DNA of 64,000 nucleotides. Origin: Sideroxydans lithotrophicus (GTDB lineage Bacteria; Pseudomonadota; Gammaproteobacteria; Burkholderiales; Gallionellaceae). The position numbers were made by a program, and so were the translations under genes. A model generated the notes under the pieces. That model was not told the DNA's origin and made no database searches. It saw nothing but the letters and a program-made list of their open reading frames with translations. This document shows, in pieces, positions 15,187-24,213 of the stretch (the stretch's first letter is position 1; every line of letters begins with the position of its first letter). The stretch covers positions 59,003-123,002 of the forward strand of contig DYJI01000007.1 in assembly GCA_020723185.1 (NCBI GenBank), written 5' to 3'.

Positions 15187-17298
15187 ATGATGGCCACGAC
15201 TCATACCTGGAGATTCTTCCGTGCAGGCGGTTTCGACCAGGTGCAGCTGGACAGCGGTGCCGACCTGTTGGCGCTGAAAGAACTGGACCAGAAACTGTGG
15301 GTGGCGTTGAGCTGTCCGGTGCATGGCATCGAGTTCGATGGCCGCACGCTGGAGATGATCGACACGGATGGAGACGGTCAGGTACGCGCCAACGAGGTGT
15401 TGGCGGCGATCGCCTGGGCAGGGACGCTGCTGAAAGACGCCGACCTGCTGACCAGGGGGGCGGACAGGCTGATGTTGGCGGATATCAACGACACCACGGC
15501 GGAGGGGCGGCAGGTGCTGGCATCTGCGCGCCTCATCCTGAGCGCGCTCGGCATGCAGGATGCCACCCATATCTCGCTGGCAGATCTGACGGACATCAAT
15601 AACTTCGTGGCCGGTCTGCAGTTCAACGGTGACGGTGTGGTCTGTGCCAAACAGGTCGACGATGCTGGTGTGCGTGCGACGGTTGAGGATATCGTCAAGA
15701 CTGCAGGCTCCTTAGCGGATGCGAGTGGCGAGCAAGGTATCGACCAGGCGATAAGCGACAGATTCTTCGCCGAAGCTGCGGCATATGCCGACTGGTATGC
15801 CCGCGGCGAGGCGGATGCGGGCATTTTGCCGTTGGGGGCGGGCAGCGATGCAGCAGCACAAGCTTTGCAGGCGGTGCGGGGCAAGGTCGATGATCATTTC
15901 GTCCGCTGCCAGTTGGCAGCATACGACGCGCGTGCGGCTGCACCACTGAGTCGCGCGGTAGAGGATTACCAGCACCTGGCGGCGCAGTGTCTGTCCGTAC
16001 AGAACGAGGAGGTGGAAGCTTTCCCGCTGGCGACCGTTGCAGCAGGCGAGCCGCTGGCCCTGCAGGCGGGCATCAATCCGGCGTGGCAGGACAGGATCGA
16101 CGCACTGAGCCAGCTCGTGTTGTTGCCGCTGTTGGGTGAACGAAAAAGTCTGTCAATAGGTGAGTGGCGGGCGCTGTGTGCCCGCTTCGATGCATTCTCC
16201 GACTGGCGGAAGTCGAACCCGGCCCCGCAACTGGACGGGCTGGGCATCGCCCGTGTGCGCGAGATATTGTCATCTGGGCAGCAGGAGCGGATCGATGCGC
16301 TGATCGCGCAAGACAAGGCGCTTGCCCCGGAGATCGAGGCGGTCCACTCGGTAGAGCGTCTGATCCGATATCAGCGAGACTTGTTCAAGCTGGTGAACAA
16401 TTTCGTGTCTTTCCGTGAGTTCTACTCCGGCAGGGGTAAGGCCGTATTCCAGGTCGGCACACTGTATCTGGACGGGCGCAGTTGCGAGCTGTGCGTCAAG
16501 GTGGAGGATGTGAATGCCCATGCGACGTTCGCCAACAGCAGCGGCGTGTGTCTGGTCTATTGCGCACTGGTGCGCAAAGGCGGCGGCGAGAAGATGAACA
16601 TCGCCGCCGCGTTCACGGCAGGCGATTCCGATTTCCTGGCAGTGGGTCGGCACGGGATATTCTATGACCGCAATGGAGACGACTGGAACGCTACCATCCT
16701 GCGCATCAATGACCACCCGATCAGCATCCGCCAGGCTTTCTGGTCGCCATACAAGAAACTTTCCAGGACCATCGCCGAGCAATTGCAGAAGTTCGCCGCC
16801 ACCAAGGCGGGCAAGGTGCAGGACGTGATGGGCAAGACGGTGGCCGGCTCGGTCGAGCCTGCCGCCAAGCCTGCGTTCGATGTCGCCAAGTTCGCCGGTA
16901 TCTTTGCCGCGATCGGGTTGGCCATCGGTGCCATCGGCGGCATCCTGGCATCCGTGGTAGGCGGCATCCTGAGCCTGAAATTCTGGCAGATACCGTTGGC
17001 CGTCCTTGGTCTGATGCTTGCGATCTCGCTGCCTTCGATGACCCTGGCCTGGCTCAAGCTGAAGAAGCGCAATCTCGGCCCCATCCTCGATGCCTGCGGC
17101 TGGGCGATCAACGCGCGCGCATTGATCAACATCCCGTTCGGCACTTCGCTCACCGGGCTGCCCAGGCTGCCGGAGGGCGCGCAGCGCGCGTTGTTCGATC
17201 CTTACGCCGAGCAGCGCCACGCATGGCCGTATCTGCTCGGCCTTTTCTTGCTGACTGCCATGCTGGCCTGGGCGTGGTACGCCGGATATTTTGAATGA
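15187..17298 (+). CDS. Conserved hypothetical 703-aa protein with an EF-hand-like loop and C-terminal TM helices
   Basis: Long ORF with host codon bias and GGAGG RBS; DTDGDGQVRANE 12-residue loop; hydrophobic segments near the C-terminus. Confidence 0.75.
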   Translation: MMATTHTWRFFRAGGFDQVQLDSGADLLALKELDQKLWVALSCPVHGIEFDGRTLEMIDTDGDGQVRANEVLAAIAWAGTLLKDADLLTRGADRLMLADINDTTAEGRQVLASARLILSALGMQDATHISLADLTDINNFVAGLQFNGDGVVCAKQVDDAGVRATVEDIVKTAGSLADASGEQGIDQAISDRFFAEAAAYADWYARGEADAGILPLGAGSDAAAQALQAVRGKVDDHFVRCQLAAYDARAAAPLSRAVEDYQHLAAQCLSVQNEEVEAFPLATVAAGEPLALQAGINPAWQDRIDALSQLVLLPLLGERKSLSIGEWRALCARFDAFSDWRKSNPAPQLDGLGIARVREILSSGQQERIDALIAQDKALAPEIEAVHSVERLIRYQRDLFKLVNNFVSFREFYSGRGKAVFQVGTLYLDGRSCELCVKVEDVNAHATFANSSGVCLVYCALVRKGGGEKMNIAAAFTAGDSDFLAVGRHGIFYDRNGDDWNATILRINDHPISIRQAFWSPYKKLSRTIAEQLQKFAATKAGKVQDVMGKTVAGSVEPAAKPAFDVAKFAGIFAAIGLAIGAIGGILASVVGGILSLKFWQIPLAVLGLMLAISLPSMTLAWLKLKKRNLGPILDACGWAINARALINIPFGTSLTGLPRLPEGAQRALFDPYAEQRHAWPYLLGLFLLTAMLAWAWYAGYFE

Positions 17299-17311
17299 AA
17301 GACCATCGCAA

Positions 17312-18916
17312 ATGAAGATCGCCATCGCGCAAATCAATTGCCTGCTGGGTGATCTGGCGGGCAATGCCGCCAAGATCGCCGACTACGCGGCGCGCGCACG
17401 GGAACAGGGAGCCGGCATCCTGCTCACGCCGGAGATGAGTCTGTGCGGCTATCCGCCGGAAGACCTGCTGCTGCGCGACGGTTTCTACCATGCCTGCCAG
17501 GAGGCGCTGCACAGTCTGGCGCAACAGTTGCAGGGCATCACGGTCGTGGTCGGGCATCCGCACCAGCATGGCGGAGAATGCTACAACGCGGCCTCGGTGC
17601 TGCGTGACGGCGAGATCGTCGCGACCTATCACAAACACGAGTTGCCGAACCACAGTGTGTTCGACGAAGTGCGATACTTCACGCCGGGTTCCCTGCCATG
17701 CGTGTTCGAACTGGAAGGGATCAACTTCGGTATCAATATCTGCGCGGACGTATGGGAACCGCATGCGGCACGGCGTGCCCGTGACGCTGGCGCGCAAGTA
17801 TTGCTGGTGCTGAATGCCTCGCCTTATCACATCGCCAAGGTCGATTCCCGCCACGATGTCGTGCGCGAGCGTATCGCCGCGACCGGCATGCCGGTCGTCT
17901 ACGCCAATCTGGTCGGCGGACAGGACGAGCTGGTGTTCGACGGCGCTTCGTTCGCGATGGACGGCGAGGGCAACATCACCCATCAATTGCCCGCGTTCGA
18001 AGAGCGGCTGGGGCTGGTGGCACTGCAGGATGGACGACCCGCTCCGGGTGAACAGGCCGAGGTGTTGCGCGAGGAAGCCAGCATCTACCGGGCGCTGTGT
18101 CTCGGCGTGCGCGACTACATCACCAAGAACCGTTTCCCAGGCGTGTTGCTGGGGCTATCCGGCGGTATCGATTCCGCGCTGACTCTGGCCGTGGCGGTGG
18201 ATGCGCTGGGGGCGGACAAGGTGCGTGCGGTGATGATGCCGTCACCCTACACGGCGCAGATCAGCATCGACGACTCGCGGGAGATGGTGGGATTGCTCGG
18301 CGTACAGTATGAAGAGCTGGACATCGTGCCGACCTTCGATGCCTTGCAGGATACATTGGCACCATTGTTCAAGGGCTTGCCGCCGGATACCACCGAAGAG
18401 AACCTGCAGGCCCGTATCCGTGGCGTGCTGTTGATGGCGTTGTCCAACAAGACCGGGTCGCTGGTGCTGACCACCGGCAACAAGTCGGAGATGACCGTGG
18501 GCTATGCGACCTTGTACGGCGACATGGCGGGTGGTTTCGCGGTGCTCAAGGATGTGAGCAAGACCTGGGTCTATCGTCTGTCCAACTGGCGCAACGAGCA
18601 GAGTCGCACCATCCCGGAACGCATCATCACCCGTCCGCCCAGCGCGGAGCTGAGGCCGGACCAGACCGATCAGGACAGCCTGCCGCCCTACGATGTGCTG
18701 GACGCCATCATGGCCAGCTATGTGGAGCGTAACGAGTCGATCGCGCAGATCGTGGCTCAGGGTTATGCCGAGGAGGATGTACGCCGTGTGGTGAAGCTGA
18801 TACGCATCGCGGAATACAAGCGACGCCAGGCACCGGTCGGCATCCGCATCACCGACCGCAGCTTCGGCAAGGATTGGCGCTATCCCATCACCGCGCGTTA
18901 TCAGGATGGTTTCTGA
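17312..18916 (+). CDS. nadE: Glutamine-dependent NAD+ synthetase
   Basis: Nitrilase domain (TPEMSLCGYPPEDL, ICADVW) plus LGLSGGIDSAL, NKSE, SAEL...DQD. Confidence 0.95.
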   Translation: MKIAIAQINCLLGDLAGNAAKIADYAARAREQGAGILLTPEMSLCGYPPEDLLLRDGFYHACQEALHSLAQQLQGITVVVGHPHQHGGECYNAASVLRDGEIVATYHKHELPNHSVFDEVRYFTPGSLPCVFELEGINFGINICADVWEPHAARRARDAGAQVLLVLNASPYHIAKVDSRHDVVRERIAATGMPVVYANLVGGQDELVFDGASFAMDGEGNITHQLPAFEERLGLVALQDGRPAPGEQAEVLREEASIYRALCLGVRDYITKNRFPGVLLGLSGGIDSALTLAVAVDALGADKVRAVMMPSPYTAQISIDDSREMVGLLGVQYEELDIVPTFDALQDTLAPLFKGLPPDTTEENLQARIRGVLLMALSNKTGSLVLTTGNKSEMTVGYATLYGDMAGGFAVLKDVSKTWVYRLSNWRNEQSRTIPERIITRPPSAELRPDQTDQDSLPPYDVLDAIMASYVERNESIAQIVAQGYAEEDVRRVVKLIRIAEYKRRQAPVGIRITDRSFGKDWRYPITARYQDGF

Positions 18917-19352
18917 GTCTGCGTAACGTGCTGGCGGCCAGCAGGTGAAAAGGCAGCAGCAGTGCCAACGCGATGCCTAGCCCCTGGTGCCACTGGCTGA
19001 TGGACTCTCGCCAGTCTTCATGCGGCGGGTAATACAGGCAAAGCCCGCTGATGGCCAGTAGCGCCAGTACTGCAGTCAGTAGTAGTCCGTTGCCGCGATT
19101 GCGATGCGCCCGCCAGTTCCCCTGCTGGTGCAGGTTGGACAATCTGCCGACCATCCACACCATCACATACGCAGCGATACCGTGCAGGACCAGCATGCGG
19201 TGCCGCAGCGTATGCAGCGGATCGGTGTAGTCCTGTTCATCCGCCTGCCAGCCCAGCACCATCCACGCCATACCGCTCGCGATCACGACCAGGCTGCATA
19301 TCAGCACCGTATTGCGCGCGAACGGACTCAAGCGTACGCCCCAACTGTTCAT
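18888..19352 (-). CDS. Small polytopic membrane protein with His residues in TM helices (cytochrome b-like)
   Basis: Four hydrophobic segments with LHG, WHQG and FHLL His residues; overlaps the end of the upstream FMN-binding gene. Confidence 0.6.
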   Translation of the reverse strand: MNSWGVRLSPFARNTVLICSLVVIASGMAWMVLGWQADEQDYTDPLHTLRHRMLVLHGIAAYVMVWMVGRLSNLHQQGNWRAHRNRGNGLLLTAVLALLAISGLCLYYPPHEDWRESISQWHQGLGIALALLLPFHLLAASTLRRLRNHPDNAR

Positions 19353-19864
19353 GGCTTTCCCTCCGTTATGGTCTGCTGGTGCAGCAGCAGGGCGAGTCGC
19401 GTCAGCTTCTGCAGCGCGCGGACGGACAAGGTGGCCCCGGAGATGCCGTCGATGTCGCGATCAAGTTGCGTGCCATCAGCCAGCCGGGCACCCGAGAATT
19501 GTGCAGTGAAAGCGGGACTCTTCACTTCCCAGCCGCGACTTTCGCGGTAGACCAGCACGCTTACCTTTTCGACCCTGTCATGGTCAATCACGACGCCGAC
19601 CGTGATCGGCCGTTCCTTGCCGATCTCGTCCAGCACCCAGGCGGTCCGGCTGCCGCTGCGCCAGTATTGCACCCGTACCTGCGGATAGTCGTGCCGCAGG
19701 ATGTCGCGCGCGCGGGTGCGCAGATCGCCGGTGAGCCAGATGTCTCGCGCTTCAGGAGCTTCCTGGAAGGTGGTGGCCAAGAAGGTCGAGACTTCCGCAG
19801 GGGGTTGATCGGCACCAGCGGGGAGCGCCAGACCGAGTAGGATGAGCAAACTGAGCCAGGCCAT
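19349..19864 (-). CDS. Secreted FMN-binding domain protein (flavinylation substrate)
   Basis: Signal peptide MAWLSLLILLGLALPAGA; YRESRGWEV and DGISGATLS ([ST]GA[ST] flavinylation motif). Confidence 0.8.
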   Translation of the reverse strand: MAWLSLLILLGLALPAGADQPPAEVSTFLATTFQEAPEARDIWLTGDLRTRARDILRHDYPQVRVQYWRSGSRTAWVLDEIGKERPITVGVVIDHDRVEKVSVLVYRESRGWEVKSPAFTAQFSGARLADGTQLDRDIDGISGATLSVRALQKLTRLALLLHQQTITEGKP

Positions 19865-19865
19865 A

Positions 19866-20975
19866 TCAGAACTGGTAACCCAGACCGAGGTTGAATCCGT
19901 CATACTCGCTCTGTCCGGCGGGGGCGCGTTGATGTTGATAGTCGATCTTCACCACAACATCGGGGTGTGGCCAGAAGTTCATACCAAGATCGGTCTGATG
20001 ATAACGGCTGTCGCCGACATCTCCTGCGCGGTTGTCCCAACGGCTGTGGCGTGCGAACAATCCCCAGCGCTCAGAAAGTCGCCATGAGGGTTCTGCGTAC
20101 CAGCCGTTCTGTCTGTCCGCACCTGCCGATGCGGGGCCGCTTCCCGCCAGTGCCCATCCCGCATACAGCAGGCGCAAACCGAACGAGCCGCGCGTGAGCA
20201 CCGCATGGGTCTCGTACAGGGTCGCCGCACCGGCTGTGGCATCAGCACCCTGAGTGATGTCCGATTGGCGATGCAGTGTGGCGGTCAGTTCCAGTCCGGG
20301 CATACCCGTCCATTTCAGACGGCCTGTATATGCGGCTTCGACAGCCGTGGCCTTGGACATGTTCTGGCGGCCGGCACGTACCGCGTAGTTCGCGGCGGCG
20401 GTCGTGGACAGGCCGCTGGTCAGTGCCGCTTCGAGGGTGATGCCGTTCTGGTAATGCTGGGACAGCATCACGCCGCCTTCGCTCCAGGTGGTGGGGATGA
20501 TGTTCGTCTCTACCGGATTGCGCTCCACACCATAGAAGGTCGGCGGTTCATGCGTCTCGCTGAGGATGCCGACCGGCATGAGCAGCATGCCTGCCTTGAG
20601 GCTCATCGCTTCATTCAGCGTGTATTCGATGTAAGCCTGTTCCAGTACCACGACCCCCGAACTTCCAGTATCGCTATGTTCAACTTCAAGTTCGGAGAAG
20701 AGTCGTGTCCGCTCGTCGAAATCATGCGATACGAACAGGACGAGACGGTGGATATCGATCTCGTCCTTGTCTCTGCCGTTCCGATCCTTGAGTTTGTTCA
20801 GGTGCAGTTCGCCGTAGCTGCCGAAGCGGGTCCGTTGATCGTCATGGTATTGAGTGCTGCTCAGCATGGCTTCCAGCCTTTCGATTCGCTGTTCCAGCAT
20901 TGCATCCGCAGCGGATGCGGTCAGCGGAATCATCATGACAAACTTGGCGATGTGTTGATGGATGGTGATGTTCAT
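19866..20975 (-). CDS. Outer-membrane porin (OprO/P-like beta-barrel), Fur-boxed
   Basis: SYGELH...IHRLVLFVSHDF...SELEVEH, HEPPTFYGVERN, C-terminal LGLGYQF. Confidence 0.75.
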   Translation of the reverse strand: MNITIHQHIAKFVMMIPLTASAADAMLEQRIERLEAMLSSTQYHDDQRTRFGSYGELHLNKLKDRNGRDKDEIDIHRLVLFVSHDFDERTRLFSELEVEHSDTGSSGVVVLEQAYIEYTLNEAMSLKAGMLLMPVGILSETHEPPTFYGVERNPVETNIIPTTWSEGGVMLSQHYQNGITLEAALTSGLSTTAAANYAVRAGRQNMSKATAVEAAYTGRLKWTGMPGLELTATLHRQSDITQGADATAGAATLYETHAVLTRGSFGLRLLYAGWALAGSGPASAGADRQNGWYAEPSWRLSERWGLFARHSRWDNRAGDVGDSRYHQTDLGMNFWPHPDVVVKIDYQHQRAPAGQSEYDGFNLGLGYQF

Positions 20976-21020
20976 GGAAACTCCTGTGTTGGTTAGTGAT
21001 CTGTTTTGCAGTATTCAAAC

Positions 21021-21057
21021 GATAATGATTCTCAATATAGATGATAATGATTATCAT
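21021..21057. promoter_or_regulatory. Two Fur boxes between the divergent porin operon and fur
   Basis: Perfect 7-1-7 TGATAAT-G-ATTATCA at 21042-21056; degenerate GATAATGATTCTCAA at 21021-21035. Confidence 0.85.
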
Positions 21058-21127
21058 GTGCAAGAGAAATTTGTTAGACTGTGCAAAAGCCGGATCGGAT
21101 TGTCCGGTTTGGAAAAAGGAGGGAGAT

Positions 21128-21553
21128 ATGGACAGCGAAGAGTTGCGCAATGCAGGCTTGAAGGTGACGACACCCCGTCTCAAGATATTGACCCTGCTGG
21201 AAAAATCCGCCGAGCGTCACATGACGGCCGACACCATCTACCGGCTGCTGGTGGAAGGCGGCGAAGTGATCGGACTGGCGACGGTATATCGGGCGCTGGC
21301 TCAATTCGAGGCGGCCGGCCTCATTACGCGTCATCACTTCGACAGCGGCCAGACGGTATACGAGCTGGAACGCGGTCCGCACCACGACCACATCGTTTGC
21401 ATCCGCTGCGGCCGGGTGGAGGAGTTCTATGACAAGGTGATCGAAGAACGCCAGCGCGAGATCGCTGCTTCACTCGGGTTCACGCTGAGCGATCATGCGT
21501 TGACGCTGTACGGCGAGTGCAACAGTCAGGACTGTCCGGGACGTCAGGGTTAA
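21128..21553 (+). CDS. fur: Ferric uptake regulator (Fur family)
   Basis: GLKVTTPR, GLATVYR, HHDHIVCIRCG...EF; ATG after GGGAG. Confidence 0.9.
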   Translation: MDSEELRNAGLKVTTPRLKILTLLEKSAERHMTADTIYRLLVEGGEVIGLATVYRALAQFEAAGLITRHHFDSGQTVYELERGPHHDHIVCIRCGRVEEFYDKVIEERQREIAASLGFTLSDHALTLYGECNSQDCPGRQG

Positions 21554-21612
21554 GGCGTATTCGTGCCGTGCCTGTTGGGCTATACTTCCGCAAGTCGTCA
21601 AACTACAGTTGA

Positions 21613-21972
<360 letters not shown>

Positions 21973-22005
21973 TCGTCCGGGCGGGGGCCTAGCGGACGTG
22001 ATCTG

Positions 22006-23706
22006 ATGTCCATGATCGCCAACTGGTGGTACGGCTTGAGCATGCGTCTCAAGCTATCCCTGCTGATCCAGGTGGGGCTGCTCATCGTCCTCGTTTTCAC
22101 CCAGCGCTGGCTGATGGCCAGCTTCGAAGCCAAGATCCTGCAGTCGGCACAAGTGCGTGCGGAGGAGGTGGCCGACGGCATCATCAACGGTATGAACATG
22201 CTGATGTTGACCGGGCAGATATCCGATCCCGCCAACCGGACGCTGTTCATCGACAAGATGAGCAAGTCTCGCGGCATACGCGAACTGCGCATCATCCGTT
22301 CCGAGCTGGTGGACCGACAGTTCGGCCCCGGACTGCCGGAGGAACGGGTGCGGGATGAGATCGACCAGCGAGTGTTGCAGACCGGAAAGCCGTATTTCGA
22401 GCGGCGAGATGCCGAGAAGCAGTCATTGCGCGCGGTCTTCCCCTTCATCGCCAGCCACAACTACAAGGGTACCGATTGCCTGGCCTGCCACCATGTGCCG
22501 GATGGTACGGTGAACGGCGCGGCGAGCATCGTGCTCGACCTTACCGAAGAATTCTCCTTGATTGACTCCATCAATGCCTGGCTGTGGATGGGGCAGTTGT
22601 TGTTGCAGCTGGTGCTGTTCTTCATGATTGATGTGCTGATCCGTTCTTTCACCGATCCGCTCAACAAATTGCAGCACGTCATGTCTGCCATTCAGGAGGA
22701 CGGAGACCTTTCACGGCGGGTCGACCTCAAGTCGCGCGACGAGATCGGCAGGATGGGCGATGCGTTCAATGCACTGGCAGACAGCCTGCAGGCGAGCGTG
22801 GAGCAGGTGAGGGCCGGGCAGGAGCAACTGCGTTTGGCGGCGGAAGTGTTCGTCAGCAGTGCGGAGGCCATCGTGATCACCGATGTGGACAACAACATCA
22901 TGCAAGTGAATCGGGCCTTCACCCAGATCACGGGATATTCTGCCGAAGAAGTGATCGGCAAGAATCCGCGCATCCTGAAGTCGGGCGAGCAGGGGCCGGA
23001 GTTCTACAAGGAGATGTGGGAGACCCTGCTTTCGACCGGCGCATGGCAAGGCGAGGTGATGGACCGACGCAAGAGCGGCGAGGTCTACCCGAAGTGGTTG
23101 TCGATCGCCGTGGTGCGGAACGAGCAGGGCGAGATCACCAATTACATCGCACTGTTCACGGACATCACTGAGCGCAGGGCATCCTTCGAGCGGATACAGC
23201 AGTTGGCGCATTTCGATGCCCTGACCGAGCTGCCCAACCGCACGTTGTTGAACCAGCACATCGAGCAATCCATACTGACCGCCAAACGCAACCGGAACAG
23301 GATGGCCTTGCTGTTCCTCGATCTTGATGGCTTCAAGGGTGTGAACGACACGATGGGCCACCATGCGGGAGATATGTTGCTGCGCGAAGTATCCGTTCGG
23401 CTGAAAGGCTGCGTCCGCGAGACGGATATGGTGTCACGACTGGGTGGGGATGAGTTCGTCGTCGTGATGTCCGCTATCAACAGATCAGAGGATGCCGCGA
23501 AGGTGGCACAAAAGATCATCGATTCTCTGGGCGAACCATTCCAGATCGAAGGGTATGCGGTGAACATCGGTACCAGCATAGGCATCAGCATCTACCCGGA
23601 CGATGCGGACGAAAGCGATGCCTTGAAGAAGTTCGCCGATGCTGCGATGTACGAGGTCAAGCAGGCGGGTAAGAACCATTACCGTTTTCACGGCCGCCTG
23701 TTTTAA
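22006..23706 (+). CDS. Diguanylate cyclase with periplasmic c-type heme motif, HAMP and PAS domains
   Basis: Two TM segments flank a CLACH motif; PAS (VNRAFTQITGY); RETD I-site and GGDEF. Confidence 0.88.
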   Translation: MSMIANWWYGLSMRLKLSLLIQVGLLIVLVFTQRWLMASFEAKILQSAQVRAEEVADGIINGMNMLMLTGQISDPANRTLFIDKMSKSRGIRELRIIRSELVDRQFGPGLPEERVRDEIDQRVLQTGKPYFERRDAEKQSLRAVFPFIASHNYKGTDCLACHHVPDGTVNGAASIVLDLTEEFSLIDSINAWLWMGQLLLQLVLFFMIDVLIRSFTDPLNKLQHVMSAIQEDGDLSRRVDLKSRDEIGRMGDAFNALADSLQASVEQVRAGQEQLRLAAEVFVSSAEAIVITDVDNNIMQVNRAFTQITGYSAEEVIGKNPRILKSGEQGPEFYKEMWETLLSTGAWQGEVMDRRKSGEVYPKWLSIAVVRNEQGEITNYIALFTDITERRASFERIQQLAHFDALTELPNRTLLNQHIEQSILTAKRNRNRMALLFLDLDGFKGVNDTMGHHAGDMLLREVSVRLKGCVRETDMVSRLGGDEFVVVMSAINRSEDAAKVAQKIIDSLGEPFQIEGYAVNIGTSIGISIYPDDADESDALKKFADAAMYEVKQAGKNHYRFHGRLF

Positions 23707-24213
23707 GCAACACCCTGGCTGCGCCGCTTCCGCCCGCATTCAGCGGCGCATCGCAAAAGGCCAGTACCTGCGGATGCTGGGCCAGCCAGTGTCTGGACAA
23801 GCGTTTCAACAAACCCTCCCCGTGCTCGCTGTGCCAGCCTTTGCCGTGGATCACGTGCACGCAGCGCACGCCCTGCCGCGTAGCCTGGTACAGGAACGCG
23901 GTCAGCAGCTTTCTCGCCTCATCGCTGTTTAAGCCATGCAGATCCAGTTCGTCCTGCACCGGCCACTCGCCGTGCCGCAGTTTGCGCAGGGTCATGCGGT
24001 TAAGTCCGTTGCCCAGGTATTCGGTGGGGGCGATATCGTCCGCACCATGATCGGAGAGCGTGTCGGCGACTTCTGTTTCGGTAAGGCGGCTTTGTGGGCG
24101 CGGTTTGCGGGGAGAGGGGGGGGAAGGTGGGCGACGGTCATTGGGCTTGAGCGGCGTCACGTCGTCCAGCAGTTGCCGGAACAAGTCTGCATCCTGTCCC
24201 GGCGTGTCTTTCA

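Follow-up and report, generated by a model that had tools for sequence, protein, structure and literature searches.

The window analysed here, a 64,000-nucleotide stretch of Sideroxydans lithotrophicus DNA (contig DYJI01000007.1; contig C8 of the analysed genome), carries a cassette of three minus-strand genes between nadE and glnB. They encode an outer-membrane porin, a flavin mononucleotide (FMN)-binding protein of the FMN_bind family, and a small membrane protein with four transmembrane (TM) helices, which we call the 4-TM protein. The cassette diverges from a fur gene, and the operon and fur use a common promoter region that holds the two best predicted Fur operators of the genome. We propose, with a probability of about 55%, that the cassette is a Fur-repressed, iron-starvation-induced module in which a periplasmic ferric reductase would serve reductive iron acquisition and feed FeoB. 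The analysed genome (2.6 Mb, 99.98% complete) was placed in a genus comparison of 25 genomes and an order-wide comparison of 301 genomes; its close relatives carry the labels Sideroxydans, Sideroxyarcus or Gallionella. Cassette loci were compared in 23 cases from Gallionellaceae and 20 from other families of the order.

The cassette faces fur across two strong predicted Fur operators

The features considered here, from the list of open reading frames, profile searches and scans of the window, are as follows.

17291-18916, plus strand: nadE, flanking gene (open reading frame list and profile searches)
18888-19352, minus strand: 4-TM protein gene, 154 residues; Pfam Ni_hydr_CYTB and DUF4405, both just above cut-off
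19349-19903 (open frame; probable start at 19864), minus strand: FMN_bind protein gene, 171 residues; PF04205, 37.9 bits
19866-20975, minus strand: porin gene, 369 residues; Porin_O_P, 36.6 bits (cut-off 20.9)
21020-21034: Fur box 1, CGATAATGATTCTCA
21042-21056: Fur box 2, TGATAATGATTATCA
21029-21077, both strands: divergent promoter-like hexamers predicted by a consensus scan, overlapping the Fur boxes
21128-21553, plus strand: fur, 141 residues; NCBIfam Fur equivalog PRK09462, 180 bits (cut-off 146); PF01475, E = 3.9e-42
21634-21972, plus strand: glnB, flanking gene
about 18917-21584: inserted block of 2.67 kb (cassette and fur)

By their junctions, the three minus-strand genes are translationally coupled. 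A single base separates the porin stop codon from the ATG of the FMN_bind gene, if methionine 14 of the open frame is the start, and the start of the 4-TM gene, preceded by GGAGGG, overlaps the FMN_bind stop codon as ATGA. The 3' ends of nadE and the 4-TM gene converge and overlap by 29 nucleotides (18888-18916), and no terminator-like hairpin was found between them. A preliminary description, drawn from the letters of the DNA, had reported three tightly packed minus-strand genes that diverge from fur across two Fur boxes; all of these were recovered at the positions given there. It had also noted that the cassette lacks an ApbE flavin transferase, a permease and a TonB-dependent receptor, and profile searches of the cassette likewise returned none of the three.

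We scanned the whole genome for Fur boxes with the 7-1-7 motif TGAKAATNATTMTCA. Box 2 is a perfect 7-1-7 palindrome and the sole zero-mismatch match in the genome, while box 1, at a spacing of 22 bp, is the sole match with one mismatch; the chance expectation per genome is 0.006 perfect and 0.29 one-mismatch matches. The two boxes, both in the 152-bp region between the porin gene and fur, are also the top two 19-mer matches genome-wide. Scored with a position weight matrix (PWM) that was partly built from these same boxes, they reach 26.0 and 21.9 bits, compared with 17.8 bits for the best site outside the intergenic region. The next-best PWM sites (≤17.8 bits) adjoin genes without an evident link to iron, and no site comparable to the two boxes was found near other iron genes in the genome. 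On each strand, the two boxes overlap predicted promoter elements (-10/-35 hexamers: TGCACA-17-TATATT and CTAACA-16-GATAAT on the minus strand, TTCTCA-17-TATCAT on the plus strand), for which the consensus scan gave 4 sites against 1.1 expected. Orthologous loci carry two to three tandem boxes of the form GAGAATNATTCTCA in the same intergenic region.

The FMN_bind protein is a predicted target of covalent flavinylation

Translation of the FMN_bind gene probably begins at M14 (position 19864), which gives a protein of 171 residues, the length of most homologues. This protein has a Sec-type signal peptide (MAWLSLLILLGLALPAGA followed by DQ, with the junction ...LALPAGA/DQ), a match to PF04205 above the cut-off and, as had been described, an SGAT motif. 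The motif, DGISGATLS, is of the flavinylation type ([S/T]GA[S/T]), and Thr145 within it is the predicted covalent FMN site. T145 and S147 do not vary across 17 homologues, the most distant at 23% identity, while the conservation of G143 and A144 is 90% or more. A profile of the family aligned over nearly its full length with solved RnfG structures (E = 1.2e-10), with SGAT set against TGST of RnfG and Thr145 against the RnfG flavin site.

The window protein shares with RnfG and NqrC the FMN_bind fold and the threonine for covalent FMN, but those proteins have a membrane anchor, whereas this one has a cleavable signal peptide and no rnf or nqr neighbours. Its scores against the RnfG families of NCBIfam (17-25 bits) lie below their cut-offs (102-230 bits), and membership in an Rnf or Nqr complex was therefore rejected. 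The three true rnfG genes of the genome lie elsewhere, in three separate rnf clusters with rnfD-rnfG pairs on contigs C2, C3 and C9 (loci L003, L004 and L005), with one ApbE for all.

An apbE gene within the gene cluster, by which flavinylation-associated systems are recognized, is absent from the window cassette and from all 23 Gallionellaceae loci. The genome-wide search for apbE that the preliminary description had called for returned a single gene, outside the cassette, on contig C9 between gshA and ptsP; its product is a lipoprotein with the lipobox LTGC. Because this lone lipoprotein ApbE is encoded elsewhere in the genome, flavinylation of the cassette protein in trans is plausible.

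The 4-TM protein is a probable di-haem cytochrome b

The 4-TM protein is probably an inner-membrane di-haem cytochrome b, as judged by its family matches and histidines. Residues 77-142 match Ni_hydr_CYTB (PF01292) with 37.2 bits (cut-off 30.1), and residues 90-138 only match DUF4405 (PF14358), which passes marginally (28.5 bits; cut-off 26.7). Among 81 close homologues, 77 match PF01292 without PF14358. Most homologues, however, lack Pfam annotation altogether: of the 120 matches listed in a search of Sulfuriferula and Thiobacillus, nearly all are without a Pfam domain. Four histidines, H57, H75, H122 and H136, are invariant in 17 homologues and 99-100% conserved among 143 representatives that are at most 50% identical to each other. 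The family forms about 1,000 clusters at 50% identity (E < 1e-10) and is present in 49 of the 301 genomes of the order.

An AlphaFold2 (AF2) model of the protein is a four-helix bundle (predicted local distance difference test, pLDDT, 82.8). The histidines stand 18 residues apart on helix 2 and 14 apart on helix 4. The distribution of charge places both termini and an RNR loop in the cytoplasm, so that H57/H122 would lie near the periplasm and H75/H136 near the cytoplasm. From this placement we infer the pattern of a di-haem transmembrane wire. HyaC, NarI and NOX5 were among the weak fold matches of the model; these matches are not significant and were not used as evidence.

Acidic residues and histidines prevail among the invariant porin positions

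The porin consists of a signal peptide, a short coiled coil and, in the AF2 model, a 16-strand barrel. A PDB sequence search with the porin found no match, and Foldseek with the model retrieved OmpC, OprP, OprO and PorB (E ~1e-13). Trans-envelope electron transfer, which had been offered as one role for the cassette, finds no support: the outer-membrane part has an ordinary 16-strand porin fold and is not an electron carrier.

The most conserved stretch of the porin is an inward loop (residues 133-168, MPVGILSETHEPPTFYGVERNPVETNIIPTTW). The strand at residues 90-101 reads SELEVEH, with alternating Glu, and the conserved segments SELEVEH, THEPP and VERNPVE are rich in acids and His. Like OprP and OprO, the protein matches Porin_O_P, and its 16-strand model superposes on OprP with a TM score of 0.66. 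However, OprP is defined by an Arg ladder and a Lys cluster, whereas among the invariant columns of the window porin 10 are Asp/Glu, 4 are His and 4 are Arg/Lys. This composition is unlike the anion ladder of OprP and suggests that the pore may be selective for cations or metals.

The cassette and fur were inserted between nadE and glnB

The cassette is carried by 11 of the 25 genomes of the genus; wherever the contig extends far enough to include the two flanks, it sits between nadE and fur-glnB. In the cassette-less genomes G005, G015 and G022 of the genus, nadE and glnB are directly adjacent (36-50 bp). Outside the genus, the same direct adjacency is found in G201 and G285, from two further genera, and in G025 and G036, from two further families; nadE-glnB junctions of this kind lie in loci L136, L140 and L141. 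Since nadE and glnB adjoin each other both in cassette-less genomes and in these outgroups, the block of cassette and fur is derived, which bears out the earlier proposal that it was inserted. The edges of the block can be drawn from a TATACT element that follows the nadE stop codon in Gallionellaceae genomes: in the window, this element (CTATACTT) stands immediately to the left of glnB, and the block runs from the nadE stop codon to this conserved element. It bears no compositional signature (GC content 0.592, vs. 0.589 for the window). No terminal repeats or target duplication were found around it; a repeat scan gave only the two Fur boxes.

The slot can hold other genes. In G019, genes for P19 (Iron_transport), an OprB porin, FTR1 and a NapH-like polyferredoxin replace the cassette between nadE and fur-glnB (locus L036, 2500-8460; G019:C33:122881-133441), and are divergent from fur in the same way. 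Across the genus, mutual exclusion of the cassette and FTR1 is not significant (counts 2/9/7/7; Fisher p = 0.21).

Fur varies with the accessory iron-uptake modules

The fur gene beside the cassette is the sole Fur-family gene found in a profile search of the genome. A second fur next to bamE, suggested in the preliminary description, is thereby rejected. In a Fur tree, the sequences form two clades with 100/100 support. One clade is linked to the cassette and includes the Fur of G019, where the P19-FTR1 genes occupy the slot. The other is drawn from genomes without the cassette; its member in G005 diverges from a cupredoxin-FTR1 cluster. Identity between the clades is 52-59%, compared with about 80% for nadE. 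Each genome has at most one Fur from these two clades, and G108 and G285 also have a second, weak Fur-family match.

No Fur-family gene was detected in G010, G015 and G022 of the same genus or in G201 of the same family. Completeness is 99% for G015, G022 and G201, and 83% for G010. Neither the cassette nor FTR1 is present in the first three genomes, by searches that did not cover G201. Fur in Gallionellaceae seems to have been gained and lost together with accessory iron-uptake modules.

These results bear in two ways on the earlier claim that the cassette is self-regulated by its own fur. The boxes overlap predicted hexamers on both strands, the boxes are conserved, and the linked Fur clade has full support, all of which favour autoregulation by a regulator that belongs to the cassette. 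The gene is, however, not an extra copy. The label 'own fur' holds in evolutionary terms, since regulator and module travel together, but is wrong in the sense of an additional fur.

Related modules recur with apbE and iron genes

Linkage of the FMN_bind gene to the 4-TM gene holds in every locus compared. In Gallionellaceae, at least two of the three cassette genes stand in the same order in 21 of 23 loci (the contigs of the other two are cut), and fur is directly upstream and divergent in 16. In the 20 loci from other families, FMN_bind adjoins the 4-TM gene in every case, accompanied by apbE (14/20), the porin (9/20), a DUF6662 outer-membrane barrel (6), bacterioferritin (4) or exbB (1). 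A literature search found no papers on DUF6662. Given apbE inside 14 of these homologous modules and one lipoprotein ApbE elsewhere in the analysed genome, the description of the cassette protein as flavinylated stands as a prediction.

Fur boxes are enriched in the loci from other families. Their 296 kb contain 14 matches to the 7-1-7 motif, about 25-fold more than the ~0.6 expected at the rate of the analysed genome, and 6 of the 14 lie upstream of the operon. Two of these loci, L120 (3451-10135; a contig of a Sulfuriferula metagenome-assembled genome) and L134 (5671-10967), share the order Fur box, hemP, bfd, bfr, DUF6662, FMN_bind, apbE, 4-TM and porin; a DUF2325 gene precedes the porin in L120. 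In L074 and L083 the cassette abuts P19/OprB/FTR1 clusters (OprB-cupredoxin-FTR1-polyferredoxin or P19 genes), and in L028 a gene for a di-haem cytochrome c peroxidase heads the operon. Ftr-type clusters hold the fur-divergent slot instead of the cassette in G019 and G005.

Two loci show variation in the number of flavoprotein genes. The ApbE-FMN_bind pair is tandemly duplicated in L125 (7495-10533; two apbE and two FMN_bind genes), and two FMN_bind genes follow the 4-TM gene in L116 (7043-8087).

The analysed genome itself encodes FeoB, which is present in 25 of 25 genomes of the genus, and nine TonB-dependent receptors. FTR1, P19 and a cupredoxin partner were not found in it.

A model for reductive iron acquisition and its alternatives

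From the coupled gene content, the quality and conservation of the operators, and the linkage with apbE and iron genes, we infer the regulation, cofactors, electron direction and substrate of the cassette as follows. When iron is plentiful, Fe2+-Fur would occupy both boxes and shut off the cassette and fur; when iron is scarce, the operon would be expressed. The lone lipoprotein ApbE (contig C9) would attach FMN to Thr145 of the periplasmic protein, and the histidine pairs H57/H122 and H75/H136 of the 4-TM protein would each bind a b haem. Through this protein, electrons would then cross the inner membrane to the flavoprotein, their source being the quinol pool or a cytoplasmic donor. Ferric iron, or a small ferric chelate, would enter through the porin, past a conserved eyelet rich in acids and histidines, and would be reduced to Fe2+ by the flavoprotein. 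Finally, FeoB, encoded elsewhere, would import the Fe2+. The 'reductive iron uptake' of the preliminary description is thus kept as a predicted function, for which the Fur boxes and the hemP-bfd-bfr, exbB and P19/FTR1 neighbours supply the context.

Several observations weigh against this model. As far as the sequence shows, electrons could flow in either direction, and the step from ubiquinol to FMN is thermodynamically awkward unless the potential of the flavin is tuned. As the host lineage lives on Fe(II), its need for a ferric reductase is not obvious. The Pfam cytochrome b match spans only TM3-TM4 of the 4-TM protein; a PDB sequence search with its profile found no match, and a PDB fold search with its model returned generic helical bundles only (best E = 0.18). 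The selectivity of the porin is read from conserved residues only. In addition, the genome scan found no Fur box near feoB.

If electrons ran the other way, which the sequence would allow, they would go from periplasmic Fe(II) to the flavoprotein and on, by way of the b haems, into the quinone pool, either as the ferroxidase step of FTR1/P19-type oxidative uptake or for Fe(II) detoxification. Such a reversal would suit a family of Fe(II) oxidisers, and it draws further support from L074 and L083, where the cassette adjoins FTR1 or P19 genes, and from the Ftr-type clusters that fill the same fur-adjacent slot in G019 and G005. The analysed genome, however, has no FTR1, P19 or cupredoxin partner with which it could work, and FTR1 is missing from 9 of the 11 cassette-bearing genomes of the genus. 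The Fur boxes also point to induction at low iron, at odds with both Fe(II) detoxification and energy metabolism, and we consider reverse flow quite unlikely. It is likewise unlikely that the cassette spares iron or acts as a general periplasmic reductase, with a small cytochrome b as electron source for a flavin carrier that either replaces iron-rich periplasmic carriers when iron is limiting or reduces a substrate other than iron (oxidised proteins, peroxide-related species, free flavins or another metal). Flavin-for-iron swaps are common in Fur regulons, but here the partner itself needs two haems, so that little iron would be spared. A general reductase would parallel MsrPQ, in which a membrane haem b protein feeds a periplasmic partner, and would fit the peroxidase gene at the head of the operon in L028. 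Yet a porin that is both dedicated and so well conserved points to a substrate taken in from outside the cell, and the recurring neighbours (hemP, bfd, bfr, exbB, P19, FTR1) handle iron.

The substrate could also be iron in another form, with the flavoprotein reducing a ferric-siderophore or haem complex delivered by other transporters rather than free or weakly chelated Fe(III). The nine TonB-dependent receptors of the genome speak for this reading. Most siderophores, however, are too large for a 16-strand porin, and none of the 23 Gallionellaceae loci links the cassette to such a receptor or to a binding protein. hemP does head the operon in two loci, but it is a common, generic marker of Fur regulons. 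In related systems, PepSY-type FoxB/VciB proteins act in this way (Meheust et al., 2021; PMC8238504). Taken together, we regard release from haem or siderophores as very unlikely.

Reductive acquisition of ferric iron through FeoB, the model we favour, can be extended to a more ambitious form, which we put forward tentatively as a doubtful but real possibility. In that form, the cassette would be a self-contained, TonB-independent, two-membrane reductive iron route, in which a porin selective for metals, its eyelet lined with Glu and His, would work with a periplasmic ferric reductase flavinylated by ApbE and with a new 4-TM family of di-haem cytochromes b. In these iron oxidisers it would also be mobile as one unit with its own Fur lineage, and Fur would be in essence a dedicated, not a global, regulator. 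A dedicated Fur would fit because the only strong Fur operators of the genome lie at the cassette promoter, because each genome has at most one Fur, always beside an accessory iron-uptake module, and because high-quality genomes of the same genus without such modules have no Fur-family gene.

Relation to known systems

Accounts of iron uptake in Gram-negative bacteria usually invoke TonB-dependent receptors, or Feo working on Fe(II) that is already available. A Fur-controlled porin combined with a covalent flavoprotein and a small cytochrome b would be a distinct, unstudied reductive route. We found no description of such a Fur-regulated set in the literature searched, nor a transcriptome paper that covers the cassette locus.

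The cassette is a variation on the flavinylation-associated cytochrome systems of Meheust et al. (2021) and Huang et al. (2024). The closest precedent is the DUF4405 cytochromes, among which haem b was shown in a six-TM protein linked to apbE (Huang, Meheust, Barquera and Light, 2024; doi 10.1101/2024.03.13.584918). Like the window protein, these cytochromes are small, lie in the inner membrane, have four conserved central His and are tied genetically to ApbE and a flavinylated extracytosolic partner. However, the DUF4405 proteins of that study have six TM helices and are partnered by a flavinylated flavodoxin and a flavin transporter, whereas the window protein has four helices and an RnfG-like FMN_bind partner. 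The porin and Fur control are additions relative to the DUF4405 systems.

Flavinylated systems have been tied to assimilatory iron reduction (Meheust et al., 2021; PMC8238504). The MsrQ-like and PepSY-like systems described there also combine ApbE, a secreted flavinylated protein, a haem-type membrane protein and iron-transport neighbours, but the membrane protein here belongs to another family (not PF01794, PF03929 or PF16357). In contrast to the systems in that paper, in which the word 'porin' does not occur, the cassette has no NAD-binding domain, DUF2271, DUF4198 or VIT1. FtrABCD and P19-FTR1 clusters resemble the cassette in their fur-divergent position in sister genomes, sometimes beside it, and in coupling iron uptake to redox chemistry in the envelope; yet they have no component in common with it, and the analysed genome has no Ftr gene at all.

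New in this instance are the loss of ApbE from the module, the tie of the module to a Fur lineage in both position and phylogeny, the polarity of its insertion at the nadE-glnB junction, and the same-genus genomes without a Fur-family gene. The cassette suggests that a module can lose ApbE and rely on one in trans. The proposed function would extend the flavinylation systems of the Light laboratory by a new membrane partner and an outer-membrane component, and would give a role to a large family that is mostly annotated as 'hypothetical'. The apparent gain and loss of fur with iron-uptake modules bears on how essential and how global Fur is in iron-rich niches.

Neighbouring genes

An Rfam scan of positions 17000-24000 of the window found no RNA family. 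Upstream of nadE, the plus-strand gene at 15187-17298 encodes a 703-residue protein without a Pfam or NCBIfam match; it has membrane segments at the C terminus and a motif, DTDGDGQ, that resembles an EF hand. Close relatives differ in whether they have this gene between rmuC and nadE (present in L019, L023 and L025; absent from L020 and L026). Just downstream of glnB, the plus-strand gene at 22006-23706 encodes a 566-residue PAS-GGDEF protein, the N-terminal region of which is apparently periplasmic and contains a CXXCH motif (DCLACHH); from these features, it may be a haem-c sensing diguanylate cyclase.

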